DNA of 64,000 nt from Candidatus Omnitrophota bacterium (GCA_043819345.1 JBDREX010000009.1:39911-103910), one strand, 5' to 3'. Positions 9,001 to 64,000 are shown, counted from the first letter of the stretch. Translations and numbers: made by a program. Notes: generated by a model not told the origin, from the sequence alone.

Positions 9001-12000
9001 GCAACCCCAGGCCTTTCAATTTCAGAAGAACCATTCTCAGCTTCACGCCCCAATATTGCGCCAATTTATTACGGTTTAAACCTGCATGAGCTTTAATAAA
9101 ACGCAATTCTTCTAATTTTGCCAAAAATTCCCGTGGAGATTTTCGAAAATTAACAGAGGCCTCCATCAAACTCTTCCCTTCAAAAACCTGATCACACAAT
9201 CCAATCAAGTCTCTCTCTTGATGAATATCCCATGGACTTACTTGCTTTATTTCAGCAATAATTGTTTCCAATTTTCTACGCCCCTGCGTGCCATAAAGCC
9301 GCGCCATACCAGACATGCCAAAATCAAAATAAACTGAATCAATGTTTCTTAAAAACCCCAGCGCTTCTTCCAAAACCGCAGGAGGTTTATCAAAATCCAT
9401 CCTCCATCTGACCAAGTTAACTTCTCCCCTTACATAACGACACCAAAGCTCCTCCCACTGCGCCGGCTTCCAATTATAATATCCAAACTTTTCATAAAGA
9501 GTGTTTTCGATAAAACAGTTATTACAGCCTATAAAGGAAGCTAACTGCTGGGCACTATAATCTATGTAGTGATCTCTAATGCAAAGCATCACTCCTATAA
9601 TCTCCTTTAATTCTGCGACACTCCTGCCCAATTTAGCAGCAAACTTCTCAACTCTTCGGCCAATAGGCCAATTCCCATTTGTTAAATGCTTCTTAATCCA
9701 GGAGGCAATAGCCAACCCCTCGCCTTTACGAAAATCAATCCTATCCGCCGATGAAAATAAGGGCGCTTGTCGAATATCGCCTGGATAAACAATGAATACA
9801 TTATCCGAAGTCCTCAATGCCTGCCGTTGATTCTCAAAAGTATTAGACGTTGATTCACTACTCTGGGCGTTGCTGCAATTTGAATGTTCATGAAGACTGC
9901 TGGAAACAAGGTGACAATGTCCAATCATTCGGCCAGAAACAGGCGCTTCATCTTGAAAGAAATCTTTAATAAACAATTCAGCCTCCTGTGGCGAACAGCG
10001 TGAAAATTCGCAAGGACTCAAAAGATAGTCTTCCAAGTGCTTCAAATCTGTTATCTCAAAAAAAGTTGTTTTTTGATCACGACAAGAACCTATGCTGAAA
10101 AAATGACGAGAAAGCCTTGTATAGCCTTTAACGATATCAATAAAAGAATCAAAAATGCTTAAATAGTATTCTTTTTGATTCTTCTCATCAACCAGCAAAA
10201 GAAAAACATGATGGCTAATATAAGTATTCTTATCCAGCCAGCATTGCTCCGGATAATAAAAAGCACAAACCTGTTCAATACGAAACGAATCATCACACTC
10301 CCGTTTTAATAAGTGCCCTAACAGGCCATTTGCTACAACACAGACATAAGAAGGTAAAAAAACTTTCTCAATTGTTTCAATTTTTCTGCCGAATGATGCA
10401 CGAATAGAACTCAAATATAGCTGTTTCGCCTGTGCCCCGGCACAATAAAGTTGTATTGTATGGCTAACAAATGAAACAAACCGGGCAATTTCCTCCACAG
10501 ATTCCAGCCGATTGTTTTCCTGAAATCTCGCTGCTGATGAAGAAGAAATACCTTCTAATGCGCCGCGCGTTTTCTGAACAAGAAAGTATAATTCTCTACC
10601 TTTTTCAAAAAGAGAAATATAGGGGCACTGCGGCAATCCTATTAAACTTATACCATCGTCTATACATCTTTCCTCAATACCAAACTTTTTATAAAACCGC
10701 TTCGCCCTGGCATTACCGCTCGTCATAATCGTAAAAAAGTTAACTCCTTCTCCATAAACATATATCAACGCACTCATCATTAATAATTTTTCAATATTTA
10801 AAAATCCAACTTCATCGCTCGCACCTCTTTTATTACGAAACTTCTTATCAACATAAATAGCAGCACAATGAAAATCCCTGAGAAAATAAACCTTATAATG
10901 ATTAATATCCGATTTCTTCAAAAACTTCTCAGCTTTGGCGGAGAAAGGCAGCCGCAAAGAACTCAAAGACCAACTAAGATGATCTCCTTCGGAAAATGAA
11001 AAATCACAAAAAGCGACATTCTCTTTTGTCAAAAGATCAAAAACATCCATAAGACATTTTGTTCTACCGCGGCGAAGCGTAAAAATAAGTTTCTTTTGTG
11101 ACTCATAAACCGTAAACCCATCTTCAACAAGCTGAGAATAATTAAATGCATAATGAGCCCATAAAGAAGAACTACACGAGAACACGTATGTTCTTCTCTC
11201 CAAATAATTAGTCGCCTCTTTGATTAAATGTTTCTGCCAGGCTCTTTGATAATCTTTTGTTTTTGCAAAGAAGGCCAAGATCGTCGTTCCAAACAATTTG
11301 CTATTGGAACACTTCCAAATAACTTCCGGGCGCGGCTCCGGCCTCAACCTCCACCAAGATGCACTGGCCGGATAAATCACCGCACTCTCTCCAGGGTGTT
11401 CAATCATAGATAAAACAGGATATTCTCCTACAGCATACGTCAAGCCAAGCCCATAGCGGCCATTAACTCCTCTTGGGACATATCTAGTGATCGCGGTTCT
11501 AATTAAAACTCTGTTTTTTTCTTTATCAATAAATCCCGCGCCATTATCACAACAAATAAGTATTCTGAGCGTTTCTTCAAATAAATAATCCACAATCAAA
11601 GCACACCCTTTACTCACGTGCTGATGAATATTCTGAAGAACACACCCTAAAAACTGCCGCTCATTATATGCAGTTTTATCTGGAAAAACCTCGGTGGCCG
11701 CCTTCCACGGAGCCAAAACATCATGTCTCGCTAAATCTTCTATATCAACACTGAGATTATCCCTCTGCATCTGATCTCCAGCAAAAACATAGGCCCGGGT
11801 ACATTCCAACCTATTAATAGTCTCTTTACAGCGATTGAAATCAGTCCAATCTATACCACTCACCCCCCAAGGACGCATCAAATATTCAGTCTCCTGTACT
11901 AACCGGAAAACCTCATTTTTCACAAAAGAAAAAGGTGGCACAATAGCTCTCTCCTGCTTAGTTGAACGTGCAAAGATAGGGCTTGAAGAGATTTCAAACC

Positions 12001-15000: not shown

Positions 15001-18000
15001 TAATTGTCAAAAGGCTAAAGAATAAAGCACCATATTTATTTATAAAACGCGGATTCCGCGGACGAAAAATAAGCTGTTTATTGTCTTCGAGCCTGATCAT
15101 CCTGCGCTGTCCACAAGAAATCTCATAACTCTTTAAATCTGAATCCGTTAAAATCCAATGAGAAGGCGTTCGCCGCAAAGATGAAGAAGACACCACATCT
15201 GAATTCCGACCATTTTTTTGTGATGGACTGTCTATAAAAGGATCTCTAATAAAATATGAGGGAAACGGCAGGAGAAAAGAAAGAGTTTTTACAATTATGA
15301 GCCATCGGGGCAACCGTTGATAAAGATAGCCTCCCCAAATACTGAATTCAACCGCTTTGTAGCCAGTCTTTTCTAGCTCTTCTTTAGCCATAGCGCGTTT
15401 TGACAATGACAGGTAATACCAGAGCATCTTCCAACCATAAAGCACCGTTAAAACCTCAGATAAAGAAGGCACCTGCCCCTTTTCCAGACACGCGACAAAA
15501 CATAAACCTAAGAACCAAACAACTTTCGCGTTGCGAATATCAAGAGCTATGTCACACATCCGCGGATGCCACTTTTGAAGCTCAGAGAAAGAAAAAAGCT
15601 CTCTTATCTTGCGCTCGCCTAAATCAATAGGTGAAGAATTGTTCTCAATTGCTTGAAAAGTTTTTTCATAATAGGCCTTCCCTCGCCTAATCATGGTCGC
15701 CACAATATCCTGACTGATAGCACTCAGACGCTCATCGTTAATCATAACAGGCCAGCCACAAAGCTCCTCAATAGTCGCCACCTCAGCCCCCTTACTAAGG
15801 TTAACCGGGCCTTTAAAACTACTCACCGAAACCATAGCCTCACTTGCCACAAACACACCATCTTTATTTTTAGACACAAAGAAGCGAATGTTATAATCAA
15901 CTCCTCGATCCGGCACAGGATTCATCCGGCCGACCGCCAAGTCAGTTAAATGCTTAATGAATGAATATGTCCCGCCTGAATTATATCCACCAATCTCCAA
16001 AACACGAAAACCCAGCTGGCCATCATGCTCCTGTGTCAACAAAACATCAAAAGACCCGAAATCCATCCCCTCTTCCACATTCCTTTGATAAACACCATCT
16101 TGAATCATAGCCTCTTTCATAGCTGACATAGCTTTGCTAGCCGCCTGCTCCATTTCCTTTATCAACTGCTTTACTTCAGCACGCCGCTTTCTTAATTCAA
16201 CCGGAGGAGGTGGAATAATTCTCTCCTCAACAATAACATTCCTGCCTGCTAAAAGCATCTCAGCAACAATCTGAGCTTTTTGCGTAAGATTACTTCTTCT
16301 TGAATAAAAAACATTATCCCCACAACAATCATCTATAGGCTTGCAAACAATCTGTTTCAATCCATACCGCCTTAAAAAGCCTTCTAAAAATTGCTCAATG
16401 ACCTGTGTTAAATCATCCGTATAACGATATGGCTCCACATCAATATAGCTAATGCTCTCCCGGCCTTTCTGATGCCATTTCCTAAAAGCCGGGGTTTCCT
16501 TTGCAGCTGGATCCACCAAAAGAGCCATATATTTTGGACAAGGCACGCCAGCGTCTTCTAAAATACAGTGCGAAATAACTTTATCTTCAGAATATTTAAC
16601 AAAATGCACAACATCCACCATGGGCACACCAGATTCAGCAAATCTCTTAAAAGCACGGCTATCCGCATAGACATAAGCCACAGGACAGGGCTTATTAAAC
16701 CTAACAAAAGCTATTCTTCCATCTACAACTCCAACCGCGCACTTAATAAGCGGCACTTGTTTCCCTTCCACTTTCTTAAACGTAACCCATTTAGGATCAT
16801 AGACCCACAAAACATAAGCGCCGGCATGTTTGGCACCTTCCACAAGCGAAGTTAGCCCATTATGGTCAAAATATAAAGCACCATAACGGACAACAGCAAA
16901 TTTCTTATCAGGACCCAAATCGAACGCATCTATAAAAACAGGCCTTCCAAAGCCATGCGCATAAACGTCTTGACAACAGCGCAGATTCCAAAAATTTGAA
17001 GTGCTTATCGCTTTTGTCTGCGAAATTATCTTTTCATCCATCAATCCCGCATCCATCAAATAGCCTCCTGCAACTTCATAATAAAAATCTTTACCAAGAG
17101 TTGCCGCCTTTCTTATGCTATTACGAATCAATATCTGGCCGGGCAAAGACAAGGTCTCTGTTACAAAAAAACGAATAATCGCCCAAGCTTTTGGAATGAA
17201 TGATTTTTTATAAAACTGCCAAACATTGCCTCTCATAAAGCTCTTAACCGACCTTATGTTCCATAGCATTTCCATCCACAAGATGCCTCCAAAGCTTCGT
17301 ACTGTAATCATCTCAAACAAACGCGCTGCCGGAATATCAAAAAACGTAACAATGCCCTCGTGCAACTTATTAATAACTTCATAACCCGGCTTAGGATTAC
17401 TCTTTAGCAAATCAATACATCTGGCCATCGCATAAAATAAAGAAAACTCGGCAACATAACGCAAGCTAAGGGTAAGGCTATCAACTTCTATATCTGCCTG
17501 TAAGTAAAGAGTTCTAAGGGCCAGATAAAATCTTCCGGCATAAATAAGAAAATCCTCATCACAACCTCTGGCAAACTCTAAATAGGATTTAAGGCGATTT
17601 TTCTGTTCCAGATAAGACATATTCAAGAAAGCATTCCTCATGAATTCAGCATAAGCCATACATGGTTTTTCAATAATGCGCATGGCCTCATCATAGCGTT
17701 TCTCTAAAGCAAGGCGTTTAATCATCTTTACTTCATACGAAACTTTAACGCTGGCCGGCGAGCCAACAGAAAACCTGCAAGAAAGACAAACTGTAAGCCG
17801 ATCCAGAAGAAATGACGCTATTAATCCACACCACAAAGGCACCGATCCAAGACCATGCGCCATCCAACCAAAAGCGATCGTTGGTAAACTCCACACTAAC
17901 ACCCAAAAGGCCGGTATCACGGCATAAGCCAGAATAACAGCACTCTTACGCACCAATAAAGAATTAGAAAAGCGCGTCCTGCTCACCAACATCAATAATA

Positions 18001-21000
18001 AAGCGCCCAAATACAACGGAACCTGATCTCTTTCAGAGACACGGCAAAATAACGCGCGATCAATACAGATCTCCTTATCTGCTATACAAAAAAGATCTTC
18101 CCATTTCTTATGCTGAGCCCTATCAAAAGGCCTGAATATCCCGTAATAAGAGTTGAGGGCTCCAATATGGCCGAAAAACTTTGATAGGCGGCGATACACA
18201 ATCACGCTGACAATAGCTGCAAGCAATATAATATTGTTCTTTATAAAAAAAGGTTTAAAGAAAAAGAAACCTGCTGTCATAGCAACTACCAAGAAAACAT
18301 AATAACCTAATACCGTCGTCAACAAACACATCATCCCTTTATCTGTCAGGCGCGCATAAACGCCGGTGTCACTCCTAAAAGTAGAAACAAAAAGTTTTTG
18401 GATTATCTGCTCATCCATATCAATGGGTGAAGACAACTTAATATCTTCTGTTGGCTGCGCTAGGATCTGCTCAATAAGACTTATAGCATACGGCATGGCT
18501 ACTGACATCTTACACCTTAAAGAGCCGTATGTTTCATGCCCGTCCAAAGGCTCATAATCCTGCGGATACGAAGGCTCAATGTCCTGAACAGGCGAAATCC
18601 GTTCAACACGCCTGTTTAACCCAAGAAAAGAAAGATCCCTCAACACTCTGAGCCGCTGAGTTTCCTTCATAACAAAAATAAGGCCGCACTCGGCATAATC
18701 CTCATTCGTGACAACTTGAGGCTTATGTTTGGCGAGAAAAGCGTTTTTATCAAGCGCCTGCCTCAAATAGTCAACATCCTGCGGCGGCTCAAACCCTCTT
18801 GAACGCACCTCAACCTTATCCGAAAAACCAAAAGCAAGCAGCTCTTTTTCAAGCTCATCTTTAGCTAATGGCGATCTTTCCTGATTATGTTTACACATCA
18901 CAAGCACAACTAACGAACTTGAAAAAACAGCTTTTTCCAAATCCTCAGGCACAAAAACAATGCCACCGGCTTTATTAATTAACTGCTTAGCCATGTTAAA
19001 TCTCCCTGTCTGGAGATATAAAATACCCGACTTCAACAAAAGATTTTCAGGAGGAAATTTTTTAAGATAAGCCTTTTCTACGACAGATGTCAAAAGTTCA
19101 ATGGCACGTTTTTCACCCCAGTTAACCCCGTGAATTTTAAAATCATTATCGTCTAGATCATAAAATTCAACCAACTCCCATAACGCGGCTTCTTCAAAAG
19201 ACTTTAGAACATCCGGCATAACATCAAAAAGCTGATCGGCCCAACCTGTAAACAATACCTTGTGCTGAAGATCATAGAGATCATACCGGCCAAATAAAAT
19301 TTTTGAAATATCTAGTGCCTGACAGTAATGCTCAATCGCGTCATGGCAAACAACCTCAAGAAAATATCTGGTCATCATAGGCACAGAAAAACTCTTCATA
19401 AGCCCATTCTGGCTTAAAAAATTATCCTTTCGGCAAAGAACAAGGCTTGTCTCATAATCAACTGTTTCAGCGTTATGCTTCATTAAACTGTGATATAAAG
19501 AATAATGCATGCGCACATCTGCCTGATAATCATAGAAAGCGGCACTACTGGCATATAACTCACCCATTCGTTGATCTGTCTGAAATATTTTATTAAAATA
19601 GAAATTTTTTCTGGCACTAAAATACAATGGAAAGAGATTGAAAAGAGGGAGAAGGAATTCTAATATATAAGGAGGGGCATGATCCTTTAGATGAATCAAG
19701 AATATCGTTAATACGTGATTGACTTTTTCACAAGCAACCTTACCTTGATATACTTGTGTAGCCGCAAAATCATTATCTCGCGATTTTTTTATAGCCAAAA
19801 CAATCTTCAACGATCCTAAACAATTCACACGAGCCCCGAAAACAGGAAATGATTTTTTAGAAAAAGGTGGAACGTCCTTGTTTTGACGGTCAGATAACGG
19901 AGAGCTACCGCCATCTTGATGCTCCAAATCCAATAAATAATTTCTCTCTCTAGCCCGCACCTCCTCCTGTTGTTGCACTTTCAGGTAGATGCTCTCAATA
20001 TACTTCTCAACCTGTTTTGGCAATAAACCAGATTCCCGAATAATATCAGACAATTCAGTCCCATACGTCTTGATAATTGCTAACTCATCCTCATGTAAAT
20101 GATCTTTAACAGACAAGAACTCCTCTAGGGTTAATATCGCTTCATTAATATAAATTTCCTCTCTGACTCTTGAGGCCTTCTTTCTGGAGACCATAATAAG
20201 CGGCTCATTAATTTTTTGTAGGTGCTTATTCACCGCAAGTAAAGCCCTTCTGAGTTTCTTGACATCCAGGGAGACCTCCTTGGCTAGAGCCTCTACACTG
20301 TTCCATTCAAAACTCTTAAGCTCCCTACCTCTAAAAACAGCCCACTGACAGAGCACAACCACTTCCCTTCTGATGGAACAGACAATTTCTTCTCTCTTTT
20401 GCTCAAGAAGCAAACAATTAACCTGATCAATATGAACAGATACAGTTCCCGCGCTAATAAGGGCCTGCAAAGCAATGTCCTTCTGACATATAATAAGCTT
20501 CTTCTGTTCTGGAGAACGCTCAATAGCCCACCTATACAACCTATAAAAACCATCATCTTCATGGACAGAAACACCTTTTTTCTTATTCCGTAGCATCTGC
20601 CTATTGACAGCAGACAAGTTCCTTCGCACAGCCTTAACGGGAATTTTTAAAACTTTCGCGATATCAACCGGAGCCCATAAACGCACGCCATTTTTAGAGC
20701 TTTCTTTAACGCCCCACCTATAGATCAAATTAAAATAATACTTTGGATCCTTTATTTTAATTTCAGAAAACCCTTCCCGCACAAGGGCTTTGTTCACTTT
20801 CGGCAGCTGAACAGAAACGGTCGTATCATTCAACTTAAGTTCTCGCGCCAAATTGATTTGTGTCCACCTCTTATAGACCTCTGTACTTTTTCTTTCTTTA
20901 GCCCATTGAAATAATTTTGCAAAAGTTTCACTCTTAGATAAAGAAATAAGGATGGGGCTGCGGCCCTCACTCAAAAGCCGATTATTAACCTTATTAAACT

Positions 21001-51000: not shown

Positions 51001-54000
51001 AGCGCATGGTATCCAGATAATATTGATCAACATAATCCATCGTTTCCGCGACAGAAGGAAATTCTCTCAGTTTAATCTTTCCCATATTAATAGGTGAAGA
51101 CGCCTTGTCTAGCAGGGCTTTAAACGCAGCCTGCAAGCGAGGAATTGTTTCAATGATGGGCTGACGCGCTGTAAAAGCCGGAAACCACTCGGCCAAACCT
51201 TCGCGGACAATCTGAAGGCCACCGTCTTGCTTAATACTCTCTTTCTGTGTCGGGCTATAAATTTCAATACGACCTCCTATCTCCATTCCTAGGCGAACCC
51301 TCTCCCAATTCAAAGCAAACACTTTCTTGCCTTGCATATAAGCCTGGCGTACCGTATCAACTGTTGCGCTATTCTCAGCAGCTTCTACAATCATCAATAC
51401 TTTTGAAAAACCGCTCAACATTCTGTCACGATCAAGATGCCTTATAATCCGCTCATCTTTTGATAGCGCATCCTGCTTATACTCTGAAACAAAACAACCA
51501 CCAAATTGAAGTATCAATTCTTCAAAAAATCCCCGATCAGGAAGCAAGATTCTTGGCAAGACATGCTTATTTCGTATCTTCAGCGCATCACCCAATACAG
51601 CAATAATGCGCCCCTTCTGACTCAACGCCCCTAGCTCTGAAGCCAATTCACTACCCCAAACATGCCCTGTCACCAAGGTCCAATCATACGCGGCGGCCGC
51701 TTGAGCTAGAGCATAAATAATACGTGTTCCGGAACAAGACAAATTTGTCGTCCCTGAAAAATTTATAGTCTTAACAAAAGATAAAGCATTAGAATTACCG
51801 TAATAATAGATTTTTTCAGGTAACTGCACATCCTTAATTTCATAGGGCCGCCCGGAACGAAATTTTAACCGTTCATACCCTTTTTCTTCATATTCTTTGA
51901 TCAAAGACGGAAATTTTTCTTGCACATAACTGGCAACATCACGCAAATAACTAAAATTCCGTAAATTCATCCTACCCTTAGATACCGAAGAAGAAGCACC
52001 AGAAACACCGGGAGAAAATCTCACATGGCGAAAATCAGGCCCAAGACCGAGGAAAAATTCATTAAGTTTTTTAGCAGATGCCTTCAGATCAATCTTACCC
52101 TCTTCTATTAATTGCTTAATCATCTTATGAGATGTAGTTGGCTTCCACCACTGGTGGTTAAGAAAATCCAACGACTGATTCTTTTTTAAAGCTACAACAA
52201 TACGTATTTTCCAGTATTTAATATAATCAAAATACTCATTCAAGACGCGGCGTAAAAAATCATAATTATACTCCTGATTATACTGAAGTAAGCCCAAATC
52301 ATTGAGCACAACAATCCTTTCAGGTATCAATTCTAACTTTAACGATGCCTCTGTATAATACCGCTTGTAACCAAAAAGATTTTCTTCTCTTAACCAACCG
52401 GATGTGAGTTGGTTAAGCTTTTCCCAGGCATCAGGCGGCATATTATCCTTATAAAATACTAGGTCAATCAGTTCGCCTCGCATCTCAACATTCTCATGCT
52501 GATTCACCCTGCCTATCTGCTTACCCATACGTTTTAACACCGGTTGAGGAATACCCTGCTGTATAAAAAATGCGTATCCGTAAACCTGCTCATACTCCAA
52601 ATATCCTAAATCATTCAATTCTGCTATCTTATCAACATCAACAGCCAACCATAAAAAACCGCTGCCATAAATTCGCCCATAACCATAGGGATGTGTTTTT
52701 CCAGACCAAAAAGAAGTTTCCTCAACCAACCCTTTCCAAGCTTCAAGCGGCATATCCTGCTTATAAAAACGCAGGTCTAATAAAGCACGATGCGCACGAA
52801 CTTCTTCATACAGTTTTTTTACGGATTCCTGAATCGGCGGCTCCGGCCTTATTGAAACAAGTGCTTCTGTCTTCCCTCTAACAGGCTTCCATTGATCCTT
52901 TAAAAACAAATAAACATATATTTCCTGGTTTACCTCTTTAGGTAAACAAACTATATTCCCTGGCCTAATCTGTGGGATACCTTTTCTGTTCAAATGGATT
53001 TGAGGATTAACCGTTAAAATTTCTCTCCACCGTGATCCAAGATCATAGGAATGATCTTTCGCTGTTCTTGTATTTTGAAAAATATATTTTGACAGATTCC
53101 ATAAAGTATCTCCTGCCTCAATACGACAGGTAACCACTTGTTTATTGCTAGGTTCATAGGCATAACGCGACATGTCTGTGAAAGGGACAGCGGCTGAAAC
53201 AGAAGCAGGCAGATAAAGTAAAACAAAAAGAAGGATTGTAATAAAGAAAAACGCGATTCTCAAGCGCCCATTACAATTGTTTTGTTTTAAAACAAGAGAG
53301 CCTGATATGCTTGATGATACATCCTTATCATCGTTATTTTCAGATGAAAACATGGCCCTAGCCAGATGAGAAAATCCAACCATACAAAAAGCATGTAATA
53401 CAGCAGCCATCATGACAAAATAATTTCTATCAAGAACCCCATATAATAAAATACCAAAACTCATAAAATAATACGTCAGCGAATCTTCATACATATTTCT
53501 AAAAAAGCAGCTACACAAAGAGTTAAAACTCTTTGTGATAACATAGCTATAAATAAGAAAAACCGCTATTATAATTAGCCTATGTGTAGAGGATCCTTGT
53601 TTATAGATATTCTCAAAAATTTGAAAAGGATTATTTATAAAGTTATCTATTGTGCATCCAATCCCAAAACCGATAAAAGCAGATGTAAAATAACATGCCT
53701 CCTGGAAAACTATGTTAAAAAGAAAAGTAAGCTTTTTAAAAAGAGGCGAGCTCGCGCTCAATTCTTTCTGGCCTAATAGCTCTTTTGATATTTGTTCAAT
53801 CGCCTTAAAAATATCGCGTTCACGAACAAGAATACTTGCAAAGCGCCACAAATCACTTGAACCTGAATCAATACCACTTGCTTCTAAGGCAATACCGGCC
53901 AAATAATACCCAAAAACATAGGGCCCTTGAGCCACAAAAGTTTTGTCCCTATCAAAATATAATTTTTCCCCGTCCAATCCTTCTCCGATAAACAGATTTA

Positions 54001-57000
54001 TCTGAATTAAATATGAGCGATCTCCTGTATTAACAAACTCACGCACTATCTTCCTACCAAAAGACACATACTCTTCTTCTTCCGCGCTCAGATCTGAAAG
54101 TTCAATTTTTCGGATTGCTTCAACAAAAGTTGCGCATGGATTTTCCTTGCCCTCATAACCCAAAATGGGCTCAAGCACATGAAAAGCTTCGTGACAGGCA
54201 AGCGCCATATAGTCCTTATCAAAAAATTCTGCTCTTAAATAAACAGCTTTACCAGGAAATGTAACAGCCTGATATTTCGCATATTGCAAAGGCACCATAA
54301 AAAGAACAATGGCTGTTACAACACCTGCCGTAGCAGCAATAGAATTATCCCACACCGTTCCTTTCCGCCTCTCCAAAGTACAAATAAAGATAGCCCCTGA
54401 CAGAACAACAAATAGTCCGACACCTACAACAGTTTTACAAACAGTATGCATAAAAGAATACATTAACAAATGCCAACCATCCAAAGCAAAAACAGGGCAA
54501 CAAGAGACCTGAGAGAATTTTTCTATAGCGGAAAACTCCTTCGTCAATAAATATAACTCACGATAATAAAGACACAACTGGCGCTGTGACAACGGATGTC
54601 TCAGAAAATAAAAGACAGCGATGGGGATAGAAATAATAGCAACATAGATTAAAACTGGCGTGATATTTTTAAGCATTGATTTCAGAAATCTGCCTATAGG
54701 ACTTGAAGAAGGGAGTAATTCCAGCATTTCCGCCAACTTAACGCAAGCAACCATATACCTAAAACTTTCATCCAAGTCAAACCGGCCGGCCAGCTGTCTA
54801 GCCACAAACGCATAATCTAAATCAAAAGAATCCCAGCCATATCTTGTCTTAAAAAGATTATCGCGACTGAGAGATAAATCCGCCGGAAAAGCCAATTTTA
54901 AAAGCTTAACCTGTTGATATAACTTTACATAAGACAGTTCTGAAAAATGCCTGGCTTGCTCTAATTCTATATTTCTTTCTTTCTCAAGGCCCTCCAAAGC
55001 AAATACATACCCTGTCTTAACAATCCGAAAACACTGCAAAAGAACCTCATGAAAAATATCCATAAGCAGGTTGGCCTGTAAAACACGCTGATTCCCCGAA
55101 GACTTTTCAAAAATATCCTGCACATCAGATGACAACTGTAAACGGCCATGATCCGTCAAATACTCTTTAATAGTACGAGAAATATCCGCATAACTTGACA
55201 TTTCTTCAAAAGTATCAAAAAGCACAGCAAATCTGTTGATAACAACCTGAAACATTCTCATCCGCATCAATTCAATCAAAAGATCAATATCCCTGATTTT
55301 AGAAATCATATTGGTCTCAGTCAGGCAACCTCTCTCTCCATAATTAGATATTAAAACCATCACCTCCGAACGAATCAAAATAGCACGAGCCTTAAAGCGG
55401 ATTAAAAATTCCTCCTGTTGGGCCATGATGCGGACAAATCTTTCAAAAGGCATACGGCCATTAGTATTTTCTAATAGAGATAGCACTCTAAAGAAATGCC
55501 TCACGTATCCTCGCAAACCATTCACATAAGAAGCAACAGACAAAAGCTCCAACAGCTTAACCTCTTCATCTGATGTTATTGGCCGAGGAGCAAAACCTCT
55601 ATTTCTTGGATAACTCCTCATCAACTGATAAGCATAATCGATTAAAGCTACAACATCAGCATCTTCTGCTACTTGCCGTCTTTGTGCTATGCTGCGATTA
55701 AAGCCGCTAATCTTATAGGTCAAAGATCTGACTTTTTCAAGCGTTTCTTCAACCAGCGGCTGCTCAAACCCGGCAACAATCGATCTTGTTTCTTTTAAAG
55801 AATTAAAACCTGGTACTTCACCATTAATCTCAAATTTCAATACTTCACAAGCCTGTTCCAGCTCATGAGTCGCAATCATTAACTCTCGCATTAACTCTGA
55901 GCAAGAAGGCCTATTGCGAACAACTCTATTTTTCTCAATAACATAAAGAAGGTCTGCTTTTAACCTACCTGAGAAAACCATATCTAAAATAGGAAATACT
56001 TCACAGAGATTACGCCAATAGGCTTTTTGTAAACGCAGAGGGCTTGAAAATTCAGTCGCCCCCACCACACAAGACAACTCTTGCACGAAACAGCTTCCCT
56101 CAAACATATGTAAATATCCCTTAAGTCCTGAATCCAACTTTCTGGCTTCACTTACAGGAGAACTCAAAGGATCAATTTCATCTAAAAACAAAGGCAAATA
56201 TGGCCTTTGATCTTTATCAAAACGGCCGCGGTTTTTTTTCTTGGCGCCAACAACAGACCAGCGCCGCAGGCAAGGCAATGACGGAAACGCAGCATTTTCT
56301 ATAAGTTTCATCGCCTCTTCATCTGTAAACTCAACTGTTTCAGCCGTCTCTTTAACCGCGGGAGACAGCGTCTGTAATTCCACCTTAAATATTCCCCGCC
56401 CTAAATCATTAATACGAACATCAAACAATTCACCTCCAAGATCATTGATGATCTTCGCGCCTCTCCCCCTCACTCTGCCCGGAGTCGTGTTTGTTGATAA
56501 ACCAGGTGTGATCAAAATATTGGCAAGATCTTCCTTAGAACCTTCGAAATAACAAAGATTCGATGTTTTAATCAAAAGTTGCCTACCGAACAAAGAAATA
56601 TCCAGCACCACTTCATTCTTTGCTTCATTAAATAAGAATCCTCCCTCTGCAAGCCTTTCTTCTATCTTTCGTCTCTGCTCATCCGCATTCTTGATTCTAT
56701 TGACAAGAATCAAATAGATCTGCCCAGCAACGATAAAAGGAATCTTTATTTCTCCAACCTTATCGGCTGTCACATCCCGATACTCATAAATATAATCTTT
56801 GACTTTCCTAATAGATCCAACACCGACAAGATGAAGAATATGCCTCAGCTTAAAAGATCCCTGTAACATCGTCGTCTCAGGTTTGAATCGAACAATATAA
56901 TAATGCCGCAAAGACACAAACAGCCAATACATCAAAAACACTCTACCCGTCAAAGAAAGCTCTTTATCGCGATTATCAACAGTTTCAAGAAAATCTCGTT

Positions 57001-60000
57001 CTCTATAATTCCCCATCATGTCTTTAATATCCTTGAGAACAGCTTTGAGATTAGGATTTTTCGGATCAACATTATAAAGAGTCAAAAGATATAGTATTCT
57101 GGCTCTCACGTCATGCTCAAAAGCATCCGTTACACAACCTGCTTCAACCATATCCAACACCTGCACTTCTTCTTCTCTAATAACTTCTGCAACAACTGGC
57201 AGTTCCCAAGCATAATACTCATCCCTTAAACTAACCAGAACTGAAACCAACCTCTCTAAAAATTTTGCAATATCGGCCAAATATTTTTCAAAATTTTCTT
57301 GCGATTGCTCAAGTTTTTTTTGCCTTAAAACACATACCCAACTAGCAATTCTTTCAGGCAACCCATACTTATAACAAAGAGTGTCATAAACAACGCCTCG
57401 CATAATAATAGGAGCGGCCTGTCGTTTTAGATTAGAAATAGACACATCAAAAGCGTCCGGAGAAACATCCCAGGACAAAACCTTAAACATATCCACAAGT
57501 TTCTCTATCCAACGCTTCCAATAATAAAGCTGTGCCCTTAAATGAAACCAGTCTTGCCCTAAAATATCGGCTCGGCCCAACAATACGTCATCGAGATTTT
57601 TCAAATACTGCAGCTCGGCCTTCGCCACATCCAGATGATTGCGAAGATCCACCGTATCTAAATGGGTTTGAGATACCAAGCAATACAAAAGCTCGCCTAT
57701 TTTCTTATCAAGTGAAAGCTCAGAACTAAGAAAACCCGCCAAACGCTTCTGGCTCAAAACAAGAGTTTGCGAAAGTTTCAACAAACGTTCAATCTCTAAG
57801 CGGTATTGCGATGGATTAAGAAGAATTTTTTCTTCAAGCGACTGAATGGTGTTAGATAACATATCAACCCATCTCTCTAGCGCCACAATCTCATCACGAA
57901 TCTCATCCGGGCTTAACGGACTTGAAACCGACATAATTTCTTCTAAAATAAAAAGATAAGGATAGCTAAGATTCTTTGAATAAATTCTTACAACTGAAGC
58001 ATTGGTCTTGGATAAGTTTTGATGAATTGCTTTGATTGTTTTCGTGTTTGCTATATCCAACCACCCGCCCGCGATATTAACATAGCAATGTTCTAAATCT
58101 AAATGCAGTTTACACCCTTGCCCAAAAATTCTGACTTCTGAAAAAACCTCTTGTTTTTGATACAGACGAATTAAATCAATCATGGTAATAAAACCGCCCA
58201 CGGATTGAACTGTTTGCGCGATCTTCTCTTTTGTTGCTTGCTTCTTTAGAGGCAACCCACTGTTATAAGCATTAGCAACGCCTTCTACAGCACTGTTCCA
58301 CACATATAATGTTGCCATAGCGCGTGAATATATGCTTTGCTCTACTTCCAACGTATCATCTTGATAGAGCGCAACGCCAATTAAATGCGGTTTATTCAAC
58401 ACAACGCTCTTATGTAGGGCTAAGTATTGAGAATTGCCTTTCAGATCATCTACCGCCAAAGGCGAAGAAAAACGACAAGACACTCTATCCAAAAACTTGC
58501 GCTGCAGCAAAAATTCAGTCGCCCCCACCACACAAGGCTTGCCCTGCACGGCACAACTCAAATCGGATAACCTGCCACGGTAGGTCCGAATGATTTTAGG
58601 GGCGACTGTATTACTAAGATTATTATTTTCAGCGAAAGCGGCTGGAATAAAGAAAGCGGATAAAGCACTGGATGTCTTATAAAAAATACTCGTTATTCCA
58701 TCATACCCACCCGCTCTCGGCACTAATTTACCACCAAAACCAGCTCTTGTTTCAAGTTCTTCCTGTGTCATGTATCCCAGATGACGCGTTAAAGCACTGG
58801 ATGCAAGTGTATTCTCTGCATCCGAAAGGTAATATTGCTGCAGGCGACTTGGCTTTTTAGCTTCATTCGGAATAGGCTTTAAGCCGATTTTCAGAAAAAA
58901 TAATATATTGATGCGTAATGTGTTTAGCTTATCTTTTAAAAACTGATAATCCTTTAGCGGACAGATAACATAAGGATTAAGCCAAATAAGAGGCATAATC
59001 ACAGCCTTGCAATAAGGCTTGTAAAGATAAACCCTCAAATTGCCATCTTTATCTTCGGCAATAGATTCAACGCGCACAAGCTCTTTTTCAATGATTTTCT
59101 TCTTGTTTTTATTATGTTTCTCAAAGAAATCGATGTCCCCCTGATAGAAACGAAGAATCTCATTACCCGGATAATGCCTGACGATAAACTCAGCTAGGCC
59201 TATCATAAACCATAACTCTATAAAACTAAAAATCATGCTAAGCCCAATATAACCGGCAGAGAGCCAAGCTAGAACCTCTAAGCCATTTTCAGCCAACACA
59301 CAAACAGCACAAGTCAAATATAACAATTTAAATGTCATAACCACAAAGCTTATGAGCTGATTCACGGAAAGAGTGCAACTGATAGCCTTAGGCAAATTGT
59401 TATTGGCGATGGTGACCTGTTTAAGATGTCGCTTACGAAATCCCTTAAAAGAAATGGGCGAAGAAAAATGATCTTTTGTGTGGTGCAATTGATAATAACT
59501 CTCACCGGCATACAAAGCAGCTTTAACCCGGTCTTTAAGTGCCCTCATTGCTTCCAATCGATTTGTTTTATTGCGTTTATTCATCATTCTTCTAAACACC
59601 TTCCAAGACGCCTCAAATGCGACATCACAAGAAATAAGATCTAAATCGTCAAGCGATAGCTCAAGAACACGATCAATATTTTTAAAAATACGAAGCCCAA
59701 AAACAATAGCTAATGACTCTACAAATTCAGGATAACGGGAAATTTCATAAGCACCTGTCAAAGCCACTCTCAAAGACATCTCTTCATTGCTAGTGATAAT
59801 TTTCACAAATTCCTTCATGATAAAACCATGTCTGGAAGAATAAAGCACCTTGGGAACATCTCTAATAACAAAGGTTCTTAAAGAAGAATTCTCCGAGCTG
59901 TCACCTTGCGGATAGCCCCAAGAAAAAACAAACTGTTTCGTCTGTTGTAGGGCATAAGGCAATTGTTCTCTTAATATCTCTATATAATGGACACTTAAAC

Positions 60001-63000
60001 CATAAAACTTAAAAGTAGAAAACTCAAACAACCTGTTACCCGCCGCAACCTCGGCTTCCCACAAGCTATTCATTCTGCCTGCAAGATCAGAAGAAAAATC
60101 CTTGTTTTCACAATCTGGATAAACGATTGCATCAGTAAATGCCTTAGGCCGTCTAGTTTTATCAGGAATAACTCTTTCAACAGACCTCTCATCATTGCCG
60201 ACTAGTTTATCCGTCAGAGCTCTGTCCATCACAGATTTATCTCTTGTGGCTAACTCTGTTTTGCGTACCTCTTTAAAGCGTTGATTACAAGAACGCATCT
60301 GGACCAATTCTTGTTTTTCACAGCTCTTATCAACTATTACCATTAACGCCTTCCAGGAATCTTCAAATCTAGAATCACAAACAACCTTTTGGAAACCTCT
60401 GCATGACAAGATCAATACTTGATTCACCTCATAAATAATATCCTTACCAAAAATGGCCACTAAAGAATTTAGATATTCAAAATAAGCCCCCATCTTATGA
60501 GCATACGCTAAACCTACTCTTAGCCCCATACGATTATCACCAGTAATAACGCGCGCGAATTCCTGTATCAGAAAAACATGCTTCGTTTTATCATGCTGCT
60601 TATCTATTTCTGCTGCCATAAAGATTCTCACAGGTGCTTTCTCCAGACAAAATTCACTTTTTAAAAAAGACTTTTTATCTGACCCGCGATAAGCAAAAAC
60701 AAACCGCGAATCATCCTGCAAAACAAAAGGAAGGCGCTCTCTTGGAAGCTCCATATATTCTATTGTGAGCTCAGGCATAGACGGCTCTACATAAACAACA
60801 GCCTGATTCCCATCTGAAATCTCATGCCTCCATAAAATTTCAACTTCTATAGGCTCCATATCCAGCAACGAAAGATCACCTACGAAGGGTTTAAGAGAAG
60901 AAGAAACATACGTCACGCCTTGTTCAACCACCTCATCAATTTTAATAACTTCAAATGATGTCTTTTCTAAAACATTCTCATGAGAAATCACAACTCGCTT
61001 AATGTCCAAAACTTGCTCACGCTCATTTAGGGCCGCAATCGGAATAGAAGAGCTTTTCAAAAGACTTTCTAATGTTGACAAAACTAGAGAAATAGTTTTC
61101 AACAAAGCCAAAACTCTATCCGGATCACAAATCTTAAGATTTGTGATAAAATCCACCAAATACATCGCCTGAGGTGCCAAGCCAATCTTCTTTTCAAATG
61201 GATGCCCCGTTGTAAAGATTCGGCCCAAAACTTGCAAAGCGCAATTATGGCTCAAATACCAACCTCTTCCCACCAGCTTATAGACAAAAGTAGCCTGTTG
61301 ACAAACTCTATCCCAATCCCAGCCCTGCTCATTTGTTGATTGCAAAATCCCCGCCCCATATTTACGCAATATGCCTATATTCCTTATTAGCTTAGTCCTG
61401 AGAGACTCATCAATATCAATAACACCATGTTCCCTACCCGTATCTACCATTAGTCTTTCATCTACATCTAATAATTGTTGAACCAATATAAATAGTTCCC
61501 CCATCAGAAAAGGTTCTTCGATTATTGGCACATTTAAAGTTTCCATATCAGAAGCTTTACCCAAAACAATAATCTTCTGCTCCGCGTTAACAGCTCTCAC
61601 CTGCGCGATCAAACTTCCCGCTTCTTCCTTGCTCAAACGATTCAAGGAAATCATCACTAAGTCAGGCCTCAATCTTGAATACTCACTCATAGCCAAACCC
61701 TTATCAACAGCTACATACTCTTTTAAAACATTCTGAAATTGCACACCTAAAAGCAGCTCAACAATTTCGGCGACAGATGAAAGATCAACCATAAGTATTC
61801 TGATCTCGCGCTTTACGGCAGGCTTCTCTTCTTTAGCATGTAGAGCGAGATAACGATCTAATTCACTCATACCACGGCTAGACTTTGATTCCTGCTTTTT
61901 AATAAAATCAGCCAAGACATTTTCAAAAGACCTCTCTTCTGTAATATCTACACACTGAGACTCCATCAAACGCTCAACCTGTCCTTTAAAGCCAACGGAT
62001 ATCTTTTCAAGTAATAAAACATCACCTGTCGCGCCTCTCGCCCATGCCTGATAAGCCTTTTGTTGAAATTGCTCATCAAAGTCATCAAGATACCGATCCA
62101 TATAAATATTTCCAAAAACAAGATACATCTTCCAAGAAATCGCTAATTTTTCATCTAAAGCCACAGCAGCATCAACACACTCAACCGCCTCTATGAGATT
62201 TTCTGCTGCATAATACGCCAGAGCCAATTCGGCGTAAATACCGGCATTTCGCGGATCGGAAGCAAGAACTTCCCGTAAAGACCGAATAGCTTCTTCGGCC
62301 CCACCTTCAGCGGCCACCGCAATCGATTTTTCATCCTGAAACTGTGCTTCCATGTTTTTCGAAATCGGACTACATGCCCCATCTTCAGTTTTCGCAAGAC
62401 CTAAAGTAACGCGTATATAAAACATGTTATTCTTAAAACAATCGCTTTGATCAACAACACGCACTACCCTGCTCAATACGGCCTCATCCGCAATCACTTT
62501 AGCACGCCAACGATAATCCTGAGAAAACTCTTCAATCAATATCCTGCCACTTTGCGCCAATAAAGAGCCAAGATTACGATATAGCCTCATGCGCGCCGAA
62601 ACAGCTTTATCACTAAATAAATCCGTTTCCGGCTCAAGATTTGTCATATCTTCTAGAATACCCGGCTGCGTACGGCCCGCTTCATGCAAAACTTTTCTTA
62701 AATAAACAAAATCAAAGGGCCCGTAATGATCACTCAGACGCTCATATGTCATATCGCCTTTATCTATGACAACACCCTCAATACCTGCCAATCCTGCAAA
62801 TTCTTTCAAAACCATAAGAATAAAATCATTCGTATCCAGAAAAACTAAGTAACCACTCTGTGGTTTTAAAGTGAGCCATACAATGCCTTCCATACCTACG
62901 CCCGGCATAAAAACACGACCAGCCATCATTTCTTCCTCAACCCCATCACAAAAAGGAATAAAAGCCTCCGGCTGATGATTCTGCATAAGCGGCACATAAT

Positions 63001-64000: not shown

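Follow-up and report, generated by a model that had tools for sequence, protein, structure and literature searches.

A recurrent Ser-Ser-[Pro/Ser/Ala/Thr]-hydrophobic motif as a punctuation mark at module edges of a giant Omnitrophota protein

Results

A single open frame fills the window

The window, that is, the whole 64,000-nucleotide stretch of DNA analysed here, is one open frame on the minus strand, with 21,333 codons and no stop, while each of the other five frames carries 1,031–2,077 stops. The frame starts at base 64000 and is open at both window ends, and the ORF runs on past both. Its codon-position composition is typical of coding DNA; no RNA genes, tRNAs or DNA tandem repeats were found within the window. 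Residue i of the frame starts at base 64000 − 3(i − 1), and site coordinates are plus-strand numbers, though the frame is on the minus strand. At 21,333 uninterrupted codons, the ORF exceeds the 10,000 aa that mark Omnitrophota-type multi-enzyme giant proteins.

Pfam families are scattered along the chain (DprA twice, Fic, M48_N with M48, glpX, LMWPc and TPR) and none dominates; GT9 and ATP-grasp give weak matches, and about 93% of the chain is without annotation. Forty hydropathy peaks (Kyte-Doolittle, 19-aa window, ≥1.6) correspond to about one per 533 aa; giants of this type have numerous TM helices, which make up about 2% of their residues. No marker gene lies in the window. No SecA_DEAD-like, C39 or S8 domain is present within the window, the ORF being incomplete at both ends. 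The window thus belongs to a single giant protein with many enzyme domains, predicted to be membrane-anchored and no shorter than 21,333 aa, and no homologue of it was found in GTDB species genomes, metagenome contigs or large public protein collections. The frame and its main motif-bracketed modules are as follows:

2–64000, minus: single ORF, 21,333 codons, no stop, coding-type codon-position composition
51101–51994, minus: DprA-like unit 1 (aa 4003–4300, 298 aa), motif-delimited
50207–51100, minus: DprA-like unit 2 (aa 4301–4598, 298 aa), motif-delimited
31397–32917, minus: Fic-containing segment (aa 10362–10868), Fic motif degenerate (HPFIDTNERIGR)
29579–30859, minus: Ste24/ZMPSTE24-like M48 membrane metalloprotease module (aa 11048–11474, 427 aa), HEIGH intact
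18434–18922, minus: LMW phosphotyrosine-phosphatase module (aa 15027–15189, 163 aa), C-X5-R-S loop intact

A short motif family is strongly enriched

In the giant protein, SSPI (10 copies, 0.21 expected, p = 4e-14) and SSPL (10 copies, 0.37 expected, p = 1e-11) rank first and second among its tetrapeptides, by enrichment as well as by frequency. An earlier note on this DNA had listed 20 SSP[LI] sites by eye; all of its five-residue strings translate exactly as and where listed, and a regex scan of the frame returns exactly 20 copies against 0.58 expected from residue frequencies, in agreement with its estimate of about one by chance. The enrichment withstands permutation, since 2,000 global shuffles give a mean of 0.58 and a maximum of 5, and 2,000 shuffles within 30-residue blocks a mean of 0.67 and again a maximum of 5. 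The SSPV variants that it mentioned are present at two sites. Its definition was too narrow. The SSP[LI] copies form the centre of a broader set of sites that follow S-S-[P>S>A>T]-[LIVAFMC].

With φ for the hydrophobic position (L, I, V, A, F, M or C), SS[PS]φ, the core set, occurs 46 times against 4.4–5.6 expected, and SS[PSAT]φ gives 63 overlapping matches, equal to 59 non-overlapping sites, against about 9 (8.6) expected. Before φ, Pro is more frequent than any other residue and fills about 40% of the positions, and Gly is absent there (SSGφ 0, 2.4 expected). Thr does not stand in for either Ser (TS[PS]φ 1 and ST[PS]φ 4, each with 2.0 expected). No gapped pattern of 3–4 residues outside the family is over-represented at p < 1e-7, and control proteins (14,790 aa from E. 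coli; 7,541 aa of ordinary DprA proteins) carry the motif as often as chance predicts. The gaps between sites are bimodal: seven span 13–50 aa, none 51–122 aa, and the remainder at least 123 aa. The sites, in chain order, are:

63821–63832, minus: SSAL 57, variant, N-terminal edge of paralogue module A, matching SSSL 6151 in register
63341–63352, minus: SSPL 217, preceded by V, at the C-terminal edge of paralogue module A
61043–61054, minus: SSSI 983, 16 aa ahead of tandem 1002–1493
60893–60904, minus: SSSL 1033, possibly a chance copy
59453–59464, minus: SSPI 1513, 20 aa past the end of tandem 1002–1493
58790–58801, minus: SSAL 1734, variant
58661–58672, minus: SSAL 1777, variant
58457–58468, minus: SSPL 1845
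57914–57925, minus: SSPL 2026
56153–56164, minus: SSPV 2613
56036–56047, minus: SSPL 2652
54695–54706, minus: SSPI 3099 (SSSPI, from 3098), directly after the end of paralogue 2880–3098
53741–53752, minus: SSPL 3417
53306–53317, minus: SSSI 3562
51983–51994, minus: SSSV 4003, start of DprA-like unit 1
51089–51100, minus: SSPI 4301, junction of DprA-like units 1 and 2
50195–50206, minus: SSSA 4599, end of DprA-like unit 2, overlapping the end of its last helix (AF2 model)
49541–49552, minus: SSAM 4817, variant
48206–48217, minus: SSSL 5262, 6 aa past paralogue 5033–5256, in register with SSSPI 3098
46991–47002, minus: SSSA 5667
46883–46894, minus: SSTA 5703, variant
45539–45550, minus: SSSL 6151, N-terminal edge of paralogue module B
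45044–45055, minus: SSTI 6316, variant, C-terminal edge of paralogue module B, matching SSPL 217 in register
44138–44149, minus: SSSA 6618, double site with 6656
44024–44035, minus: SSSC 6656
40454–40465, minus: SSSF 7846, 21 aa past the TPR array, forms a triple site together with 7874 and 7895
40370–40381, minus: SSSI 7874
40307–40318, minus: SSPI 7895, between the TPR array and a cluster of three TM helices
39611–39622, minus: SSSL 8127
38879–38890, minus: SSPV 8371
38246–38257, minus: SSSF 8582
37877–37888, minus: SSSF 8705
36869–36880, minus: SSTI 9041, variant
36413–36424, minus: SSAV 9193, variant
36263–36274, minus: SSSI 9243
34979–34990, minus: SSPL 9671, RR and a hydrophobic helix directly after
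32906–32917, minus: SSPL 10362, start of Fic-containing segment
31385–31396, minus: SSPI 10869, end of Fic-containing segment
30848–30859, minus: SSPL 11048, N-terminal edge of Ste24-like M48 module
29567–29578, minus: SSSV 11475, C-terminal edge of M48 module
26474–26485, minus: SSAF 12506, variant
26201–26212, minus: SSPI 12597
23537–23548, minus: SSAV 13485, variant
22223–22234, minus: SSSL 13923
22184–22195, minus: SSPI 13936, double site with 13923
21278–21289, minus: SSPL 14238, double site with 14257
21221–21232, minus: SSSA 14257
19895–19906, minus: SSPL 14699
19538–19549, minus: SSAA 14818, variant
18911–18922, minus: SSSL 15027, LMWPc profile position 1 aligns 2 aa later
18422–18433, minus: SSPI 15190, end of LMW-phosphatase module, before TM cluster
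15626–15637, minus: SSPI 16122, downstream of weak ATP-grasp match
15176–15187, minus: SSSL 16272, start of paralogue 16270–16399
11975–11986, minus: SSPI 17339 (SSSPI), projected C-terminus of GT9-like region
11162–11173, minus: SSSL 17610
10532–10543, minus: SSSA 17820
9893–9904, minus: SSSL 18033, last core site
6080–6091, minus: SSAV 19304, variant, end of paralogue 18942–19309 and start of repeat array 19296–20124
1445–1456, minus: SSAV 20849, variant preceded by D, perhaps a chance copy

The motif lies at module edges

Not one of the 59 sites falls inside the ten Pfam, NCBIfam or PDB envelopes of the chain (1,466 aa; 4.1 expected). Boundary markers were defined as projected domain ends and the ends of internal-paralogue alignments. 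Of 36 independent markers, 15 have a core site no more than 25 aa away, where 10.9% would be expected to (p = 2e-6). For the extended set of sites the figure, at the same distance, is 19 of 41, where 14% would be expected (p = 8e-7). The earlier reading of the motif as a module-boundary signal therefore stands as to a real protein-level signal tied to boundaries, while several of the domain calls attached to it do not. As had been claimed, a copy at aa 4301 separates the two DprA-like units of 298 aa, another at aa 11048 borders the M48 membrane protease on its N-terminal side, and a third at aa 15190 stands after the LMW phosphatase and ahead of a TM cluster; site 16122 does have a weak ATP-grasp match (aa 15781–15834) upstream of it. 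The copy placed between TPR and VanZ-like segments (aa 7895) is indeed past the TPR array and before a TM cluster of three helices, but VanZ-like, like the GHKL and beta-barrel calls, has no Pfam, NCBIfam or PDB support. Nor does any SSP[LI] stand just ahead of the HTH-like array (aa ~18400–20120), near which only the wider-family sites SSSL 18033 and SSAV 19304 occur. Junctions within the 75-aa repeat array at these residues lack the motif, the array's sole nearby site being SSAV 19304 at the start of its second block.

In the cases that can be tested, the motif closes one protein-sized module and the next starts within a few residues. The DprA-like units are bounded in order by SSSV 4003, SSPI 4301 and SSSA 4599; the first strand of the phosphatase begins 1–2 residues past the motif at aa 15027, and a TM helix abuts the motif at aa 11048 and at aa 9671. 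The bracketed modules have the sizes of free-standing proteins (LMW-PTP 163 aa, M48 427 aa, DprA-like 298 aa). One junction that lacks the motif is between the tandem units 1002–1243 and 1265–1493. Since the motif is preferentially at the edges of enzyme-sized modules, it may mark cuts or punctuation in giant bacterial proteins.

Paralogues, flanks and codons place the signal in the protein

The internal paralogues of the giant protein have diverged at the DNA level. SSSPI 3098 aligns with SSSL 5262, and the module at aa 57–220 and its copy at aa 6151–6319 each have a motif at the N-terminal edge (SSAL/SSSL) and another at the C-terminal edge (SSPL/SSTI), while the residues adjoining these motifs are unrelated between copies. 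Old internal duplicates keep the motif in register despite diverged neighbouring residues, a pattern that calls for selection acting on the peptide. Site 1033 is not conserved in its paralogous unit.

The usual upstream context is (D/E)(D/E)-(L/I)-(uncharged), with Asp/Glu enriched at −4/−3, Leu/Ile at −2 and an uncharged residue at −1; among the 46 core sites, just one has an acidic residue directly ahead of the motif. In a leave-one-out test, these upstream residues carry information (p = 6e-7) and those downstream do not (p = 0.71). The proposed split of copies into those followed by basic or aromatic and those followed by acidic residues is not significant. The flanks are compositionally ordinary and are not long disordered linkers.

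Both Ser positions use TCN and AGY codons in near-genomic proportions, and 21 of the 46 core sites mix the two; this variety of Ser codons places the signal in the protein, not in the DNA. No nucleotide pattern is conserved at the sites beyond what the residues force. At position 3, CCT and TCT, one transition apart, dominate. Shine-Dalgarno-like words are not enriched near the sites (1.37 vs 1.85 per 120 nt), nor is Met. An Rfam search of the window gave no matches. With Ser codons mixed and nothing returned by Tandem Repeats Finder, the sites are not a serine microsatellite or low-complexity tract. GC3 heterogeneity tracks the segmentation by the motif (z = 3, p about 0.001), for the 46-site set only. 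In most copies, SS[PSAT]φ is a selected, protein-level punctuation mark. No such junction motif is described in the giant-protein papers (West-Roberts et al. 2023; Nielsen & Lui 2026).

In an AF2 model of DprA-like unit 2 (pLDDT 72.6), the last helix covers residues 300–316 and the motif residues 315–318, with pLDDT <50 from residue 318 on; this helix-terminal location is seen with adequate model confidence at this one site. In a low-confidence 1,200-aa model, all four motifs are in coil between helices.

Discussion

A recurrent short consensus at the borders of functional modules, as in a polyprotein, is what this protein displays. We propose that the motif is most likely an endopeptidase recognition site in a polyprotein-like giant, a tentative reading to which we give a probability of roughly 0.4. 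One dedicated endopeptidase would read the motif and cut the precursor into module-sized products. Considering that the sequence information lies N-terminal of and within the motif, that the pattern is small-small-(Pro/small)-aliphatic and that MARTX toxins have similar sites, the likeliest cut would be just after the hydrophobic residue; an informative upstream and an uninformative downstream flank are as expected for P-side recognition. Site pairs 13–50 aa apart would then free short spacer peptides. A bolder and rather doubtful step is to take the motif as the cleavage code of a cellular polyprotein, in which dozens of enzymes, membrane proteins and regulators are freed by one protease. In that event, one ORF of more than 64 kb would be a translation unit replacing many genes, as in RNA viruses, and the same rule could be used for in silico cutting of other giants for structure and function prediction.

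S8 subtilisin-like and S1 chymotrypsin-like enzymes accept small-small-(Pro/small)-aliphatic at P4–P1, with AAPF, AAPL and AAPV as classic substrates. By analogy, the small-small-Pro-hydrophobic preference of S8 and of alpha-lytic/chymotrypsin-like S1 proteases may resemble the motif, but these enzymes are not strict for Ser at P3/P4, a beta-branched Ile at P1 is unusual for them, and neither type is found in the window. The 21,333 aa contain no detectable S8, S1, C39 or C80 protease domain, and the sole protease is the Ste24-like M48 module with its intact HEIGH. Some observations speak against cleavage: tight folded junctions would be a poor protease substrate unless cut co-translationally; no characterised protease has precisely this preference, with Ile and Val accepted at P1 and Pro present at P2 in no more than about 40% of sites; and some module junctions lack the motif, while site 1033 is unconserved in its paralogue. 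Double-glycine leaders cut by C39 proteases have GG, GA or GS at −2/−1 of the cut and hydrophobic residues at −4, −7 and −12; the motif has no Gly pair, and its upstream flank has D/E at −4/−3 and L/I at −2.

Viral polyprotein sites (picornavirus 3C, flavivirus NS3, potyvirus NIa) are degenerate signals of 4–7 residues with mainly P-side recognition. The giant protein likewise has a degenerate signal at the borders of protein-sized modules in one ORF, but it is predicted to be membrane-anchored, its ORF is at least 10 times longer, bacterial-type enzyme domains are scattered along it, and its consensus is another one. MARTX and clostridial glucosylating toxins are also very large bacterial polypeptides with unrelated effector or enzyme domains and a short recurring inter-domain site, namely LESL|SAV, LDAL|SGN, KGSL|SGA or GGSL|SED (PMC2900308 Table 1). 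Their small-small-Leu sites, x-x-(A/S)-L|(S/G/A), resemble the SSAL and SSSL copies. The toxins are cut by an internal cysteine protease domain (peptidase C80), whereas no C80 was detected here; P1 is strictly Leu there and L, I, V, A, F, M or C here, so the sites are not identical. In addition, the giant protein has about 60 sites vs 1–5, its commonest residue before the hydrophobic position is Pro, its cleavage is predicted, and no RTX or glycine-rich repeats were detected in the window, unlike in MARTX.

As the main alternative, the motif may be structural punctuation that is never cut, in which Ser-Ser-Pro/Ser/Ala/Thr stops the last helix of a module and the hydrophobic residue packs on the next. 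About 60 unrelated folds would thus fold independently during translation, under a lineage-specific linker convention kept by folding selection. Pro just past a helix C-terminus is a known helix-stop feature, and the terminal helix running into the motif in DprA-like unit 2, the four motifs in coil, the tight junctions with ordinary flanks and the final motif residue at aa 15027, contiguous with the first phosphatase strand, are consistent with it. Generic capping, however, is far less sequence-specific: it tolerates Thr, Asp, Asn and Gly, while here Ser is not exchanged for Thr and Gly is excluded at position 3. The motif is also not enriched in ordinary proteins, so a generic helix-capping motif was rejected (SSGφ 0, controls at chance). 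The Asp/Glu enrichment at −4/−3, close to a helix C-terminus, goes against the helix-dipole preference, and double or triple sites 13–50 aa apart are hard to account for as helix stops. We hold uncut punctuation to be possible, if on the unlikely side. That a dedicated enzyme glycosylates or phosphorylates one of the two serines, or that a chaperone, translocase or scaffold docks on the peptide and so handles the chain module by module, is improbable. The strict need for Ser at both positions and a potentially accessible place at module edges would suit it, as would the existence of sequons with a hydrophobic residue after the modified Ser/Thr; yet no known sequon is matched, there is no Asp before Ser, about 40% of sites have an intervening Pro, the window has no recognised kinase or protein O-glycosyltransferase (its one glycosyltransferase signal is the weak GT9 match), and modification alone leaves the coincidence with module ends unexplained. 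The Bacteroidota O-glycosylation motif, D-(S/T)-(A/I/L/V/M/T), was rejected, with an acidic residue before the motif in 1 of 46 sites and DS[PS]φ at 2 vs 3.2 expected.

A recombination or insertion scar, in which a cassette DNA target read in frame encodes a functionless SS(P/S)-hydrophobic peptide, would place the motif at junctions of unrelated modules, and both the larger GC3 differences between motif-delimited than between shifted segments (46-site set only) and the CCT/TCT dominance at position 3 fit it. This reading is largely refuted by codon diversity, as TCN and AGY are not interconvertible by single synonymous steps; the sites share no consensus at the DNA level, searches for direct or tandem DNA repeats came back empty, and diverged paralogues keep the motif where flanks have decayed, which leaves it highly improbable. 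An artefact (chance, serine-rich low complexity, codon slippage, internal translation starts or RNA processing sites) has next to no likelihood. SS dipeptides (166 vs 106) and SSS runs (33 vs 7.5) are indeed mildly enriched overall, and about 4–9 of the 59 sites are expected by chance; single SSS or SSA copies may be such. For the family as a whole, an artefact is refuted by shuffling (0 of 2,000 above 5 SSP[LI] copies, also with local composition preserved), by mixed codons, by the empty repeat and Rfam searches and by the lack of enrichment in Shine-Dalgarno-like words and Met.

Among Omnitrophota giants ('Archaeovorins', West-Roberts et al. 2023; class 1 'multi-enzyme clusters', Nielsen & Lui 2026), the cleavage points are stated as unknown (West-Roberts et al. 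2023), and most have unique sequences (West-Roberts et al. 2023; Nielsen & Lui 2026), as here, where no homologue was found. No SecA_DEAD, C39 or S8 domain was found in the part of the ORF that the window covers. The giant protein shares with them an ORF of more than 20,000 aa, unrelated Pfam families in a chain that is largely without annotation, and internal paralogues diverged at the DNA level; its putative TM-like helices, at roughly one per 500 aa, may be a further likeness.

A strict tetrapeptide family in a giant reading frame

In a six-frame comparison, the minus-strand frame that begins at base 64000 runs through 21,333 codons with no stop; the remaining five frames hold 1,031-2,077 stops each, and their longest open stretch is at most 153 codons. 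This open reading frame (ORF), the giant, is open at both window ends (window 2-64000, minus strand), and its codon positions are as in real coding DNA, the first being G-rich and the third T-rich (T makes up 40% of third positions). Window GC is 40%; because the coding strand is G- and T-rich, the plus strand has a strong GC skew of about -0.23, which stays between about -0.2 and -0.3 across all 4-kb windows. Sites are numbered below by residue of the giant, residue i starting at base 64000-3(i-1).

An earlier note, made by a model from the sequence alone, had listed 20 copies of SSP[LI] and proposed a module-boundary signal. All 20 of its five-residue strings translate as written, the coordinates being plus-strand numbers for a frame on the minus strand, and a regular-expression scan returns exactly 20 SSP[LI]. 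Composition predicts 0.58 copies, and the permutation test that it called for (2,000 global shuffles and 2,000 within 30-residue blocks) reaches a maximum of 5. SSPI (p=4e-14) and SSPL (p=1e-11) hold the top two places among the tetrapeptides of the giant, in enrichment as in frequency, and among gapped patterns with 3-4 fixed residues within 6 positions, this family is the only one to pass p<1e-7. Control proteins (E. coli, 14,790 aa; ordinary DprA, 7,541 aa) are at chance level for the motif.

The SSP[LI] definition is too narrow. The wider family is S-S-[P>S>A>T]-phi, where phi is a hydrophobic residue [LIVAFMC]; its overlapping matches merge into 59 non-overlapping sites, including 46 core sites (SS[PS]phi), and 22 sites are SSPL, SSPI or SSPV (SSP sites).

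Observed and expected counts of the motif and its variants in the giant
SSP: observed 23, expected 3.3 (next residue L 10, I 10, V 2, S 1)
SSS: observed 33, expected 7.5
SS[PS][LIVAFMC]: observed 46, expected 4.4-5.6
SS[AT][LIVAFMC]: observed 17, expected 4.2
S-S-[P>S>A>T]-hydrophobic, overlapping matches: observed 63, expected 8.6

Thr replaces neither the first nor the second Ser before P[LI] anywhere in the giant; the counts of TS[PS]phi and ST[PS]phi are one and four (2 expected for each), and Gly is never found at position 3 (2.4 expected). The upstream flank is informative (leave-one-out PWM, p=6e-7): Asp or Glu stands at -4 in 15 and at -3 in 14 of the 46 core sites, against a background of 12%, Leu and Ile are enriched at -2, and -1 is hydrophobic or small, being charged in just two core sites. 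The downstream flank of the core sites carries no information (p=0.71), so the division into basic or aromatic and acidic downstream residues, which the earlier note had seen, is not a signal.

The motif is a protein-level signal

The 12 bases encoding the motif vary between copies. Both TCN and AGY codons are used at each Ser, in roughly genomic proportions, and the two families are mixed within the site in 21/46 core sites; at position 3 the codons are mostly CCT and TCT, one transition apart. The nucleotide profile of the sites holds nothing beyond what the residues force. Neither Shine-Dalgarno-like words (1.37 vs 1.85 per 120 nt) nor Met residues are enriched near the sites. Together, these observations rule out DNA-repeat and slippage origins as well as an internal translation start and an RNA signal. 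An RNA or DNA element was also rejected, as the whole 64-kb window has no match to Rfam families, tRNAs or DNA tandem repeats.

Motif copies lie outside recognised domains and near many module borders

Recognisable domains are sparse and cover about 7% of the chain; they are two DprA-like units, described below, and those in the following list.

Recognisable domains of the giant
aa 563-657 and 7662-7825, minus strand: TPR
about aa 10595-10700, minus strand: Fic
aa 11078-11448, minus strand: Ste24/ZMPSTE24-like M48 protease
aa 12746-12855, minus strand: glpX, partial match
aa 15032-15116, minus strand: LMW phosphatase
aa 15781-15834, minus strand: ATP-grasp, weak match
aa 17245-17319, minus strand: GT9, weak match

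None of the 59 sites falls within a domain envelope (4.1 expected); the earlier note had placed its 20 copies outside recognisable domains by eye. Its association of the motif with boundaries also holds: of 36 boundary markers independent of the motif (projected profile ends and the ends of internal-paralogue alignments), 15 lie at most 25 aa from a core site vs 10.9% expected (p=2e-6), and with the extended site set 19/41 markers are near a site vs 14% expected (p=8e-7). Several motif-bracketed modules are as large as free-standing proteins. The LMW phosphatase module (163 aa) is bracketed by SSSL 15027 and SSPI 15190; profile position 1 lies two residues past SSSL 15027, and the C-X5-R-S loop is intact. 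The M48 module (427 aa) is bracketed by SSPL 11048 and SSSV 11475. Two DprA-like units (aa 4003-4300 and 4301-4598) are delimited by SSSV 4003, SSPI 4301 and SSSA 4599, spaced exactly 298 aa apart.

Gaps between core sites are bimodal: seven measure 13-50 aa, all others are at least 123 aa long, and the range 51-122 aa is empty. Thus, two or three copies are often found at one junction, and module size has a lower limit close to that of a domain. GC3 heterogeneity fits segmentation at the 46 core sites better than it fits segmentations shifted circularly (z=3, p about 0.001); this is only suggestive, because cutting at just the 22 SSP sites gives no such association, and neither hydropathy nor charge nor GC12 tracks the motif segmentation. 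Many module borders are marked by a peptide that is strictly defined and under selection. Wherever it could be tested, the boundary interpretation has support, and the original observation is confirmed and extended.

An AF2 model of DprA-like unit 2 with its flanks (22-sequence alignment, mean pLDDT 72.6) has a confident Rossmann core (pLDDT >85). Its last helix spans residues 300-316 and the motif residues 315-318, and pLDDT is below 50 from residue 318 on; the N-terminal copy (residues 17-20) follows the last helix of the previous unit and precedes about 45 poorly predicted residues. In ordinary DprA proteins, the point that corresponds to the unit's terminal motif is the start of a variable linker to the winged-helix domain. 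For aa 10340-11539, from Fic to M48, the AF2 model built on the sequence alone was unusable (pLDDT 35.7). The suggestion that the motif sits in disordered linkers failed, as the flanks do not differ from random positions in their propensity for helix, strand or disorder; the junctions are tight rather than long flexible linkers, with flanks of ordinary composition.

Conservation in internal paralogues

Since no orthologue was found in any searched collection, internal paralogues are the only evolutionary ruler. The DprA-like units are 40-48% identical, and each of their three borders retains the motif. For the pair aa 2880-3098 and 5033-5256, SSSPI directly follows the first copy and SSSL comes six residues after the second. 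A TM-anchored module occurs twice, at aa 57-220 and aa 6151-6319, with 44% identity over a 119-aa core and 36% over the entire alignment of 157 aa. Both copies are flanked at both ends (SSAL/SSSL and SSPL/SSTI); the residues adjoining these four motifs are unrelated and the codons differ. There are counter-examples: SSSL 1033 has no match in its paralogue, and no motif separates the tandem units 1002-1243 and 1265-1493. In an array of 75-aa HTH-like repeats (aa ~18400-20120), the only nearby family site is the variant SSAV 19304, located at the point where the paralogue 18942-19309 gives way to the array's second block.

The 119-aa core lies at window 63416-63772 (aa 77-195) and 45128-45478 (aa 6175-6291), minus strand, the copies being about 6,100 aa apart. 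It opens with a TM helix, contains the invariant stretch DWEKYNEIYLT-x-PRRW, and has no Pfam match and no relative in genome, metagenome or viral contigs.

Relatives and class of the giant

Five stretches of the giant, about 9,700 aa in all, served as homologue queries. Word-indexed protein searches gave no matches for aa 1401-3500 and aa 10301-15300, and only ordinary DprA at about 30% identity for aa 4003-4600. HMMER, run in full against 1.84 billion representatives, gave no matches for aa 2001-3200, neither aa 3900-5300 nor a conserved paralogue alignment (A2) hit GTDB species genomes or JGI metagenome contigs, and A2 found nothing in a viral scan. With these queries, no homologue of the giant as such turned up in 5.8 billion clustered proteins, the 1.84 billion representatives, GTDB species genomes or JGI metagenome contigs. 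The architecture of the giant, of more than 21,333 aa, with scattered unrelated enzyme domains in mostly dark sequence, about 40 TM-like segments by hydropathy, internal repeats diverged at the DNA level and unique sequence, matches that of Omnitrophota giants of the 'multi-enzyme' class (bioRxiv 10.1101/2023.11.21.568195; 10.64898/2026.06.07.730766), a match of architecture rather than proof of membership.

The discovery of predicted bacterial proteins 20,000-147,000 aa long is recent and unexplained, and the central question in the literature on them is whether each acts as a single chain or is cleaved, and at which points. The 2023 giant-gene preprint suggests cleavage by the giants' own C39/S8 domains and finds the split-and-predict approach blocked for lack of known cleavage points (10.1101/2023.11.21.568195). 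No marker gene and no SecA_DEAD, C39 or S8 domain was found in the 64-kb window. Such a motif is not described in either giant-protein paper (10.1101/2023.11.21.568195; 10.64898/2026.06.07.730766), and the words motif, linker and cleavage do not occur in the 2026 one. A strict tetrapeptide that brackets protein-sized modules offers a concrete handle and makes the processing question directly testable: it predicts exact termini to seek in metaproteomes, gives a rational rule for dividing giant ORFs before structure prediction, and is a peptide for testing candidate proteases or binding partners.

Candidate function of the motif

In kind, the motif stands closest to the signals that mark junctions or processing points in polyproteins and in multi-effector toxins. 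As to function, we infer from the sequence that it may be the recognition site of one dedicated enzyme, most probably an endopeptidase that would act at module borders; we put the probability that the motif is cleaved at roughly 0.4. This reading is suggested because the information is N-terminal only, Ser is strict, junctions carry several copies, the modules are protein-sized, and the pattern resembles both S8/S1 substrates and MARTX/clostridial sites. The order small-small-(Pro/small)-aliphatic is like that of S8/S1 protease substrates. In MARTX and clostridial toxins, a cysteine protease domain cuts x-x-(A/S)-L, after the Leu, between effectors, and the motif here is similar (PMC2900308 Table 1). 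Against cleavage stand the tight junctions, the junctions that lack a motif, and the failure to find such an endopeptidase in the window, where the M48 module is the sole protease recognised. A structural role for an uncut motif, as a helix stop or folding separator, is somewhat unlikely; even uncut, it would be a rare case of a 'domain separator' with sequence specificity, on which selection acted independently about 50 times within a single protein. A modification or docking site is improbable. The diversity of codons rejects a DNA-level recombination scar, and a pure scar is very unlikely; the chance that the pattern is an artefact is negligible.

Several known signals were considered besides the endopeptidase site. 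Pro at +1 would block signal peptidase I, and a signal peptidase I site was set aside on its consensus, as were, on theirs, the phosphopantetheine attachment motif and the Tat motif; rhomboid sites were set aside likewise, most copies being far from TM helices. Residue counts at the sites rule out a double-glycine leader and the Bacteroidota O-glycosylation sequon, and the sulfatase S-x-P-x-R motif is ruled out by Arg at +4 in just 5/22 SSP sites.

Further modules of the giant

Modules and repeats
Window 29579-30859, minus strand (aa 11048-11474): complete-looking Ste24/ZMPSTE24-type integral-membrane zinc protease, HEIGH and ERAAD intact
Window 50207-51994, minus strand (aa 4003-4598): DprA-like tandem
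Window 31397-32917, minus strand (aa 10362-10868): Fic module
Window ~3640-8800, minus strand: HTH-like array of about 20 diverged repeats of ~75 aa, no Pfam match
Window 6073-7177 (aa 18942-19309) and 2057-3232 (aa 20257-20648), minus strand: paralogous modules of ~370 aa, 24-31% identity, no Pfam match
Window 20219-21124, minus strand (aa 14293-14594): short array of diverged ~64-aa repeats between sites 14257 and 14699, no Pfam match

The repeats of the HTH-like array have a helix-turn-helix look, with the consensus '..L..L...YGI.YE.LP..IK..NSPE.VLEKA..I...GL.PKEY..LL', and lines of the ~370-aa modules such as 'ELSILVDRLDSGREDACQSVVEAYIPFCRRLL' resemble sigma-70 region 2 by eye. The DprA-like tandem retains the Rossmann fold but has diverged at the DprA signature positions, with FSGATR in place of VGSRxxT and TGHDFGSE in place of SGxAxGID, and its PDB matches include the DprA-like antitoxin ShosA; the units are probably not canonical DNA-processing proteins. 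The active-site motif of the Fic module is degenerate, reading HPFIDTNERIGR in place of HxFx(D/E)GNGRxxR, which suggests that AMPylation activity may be altered or lost.
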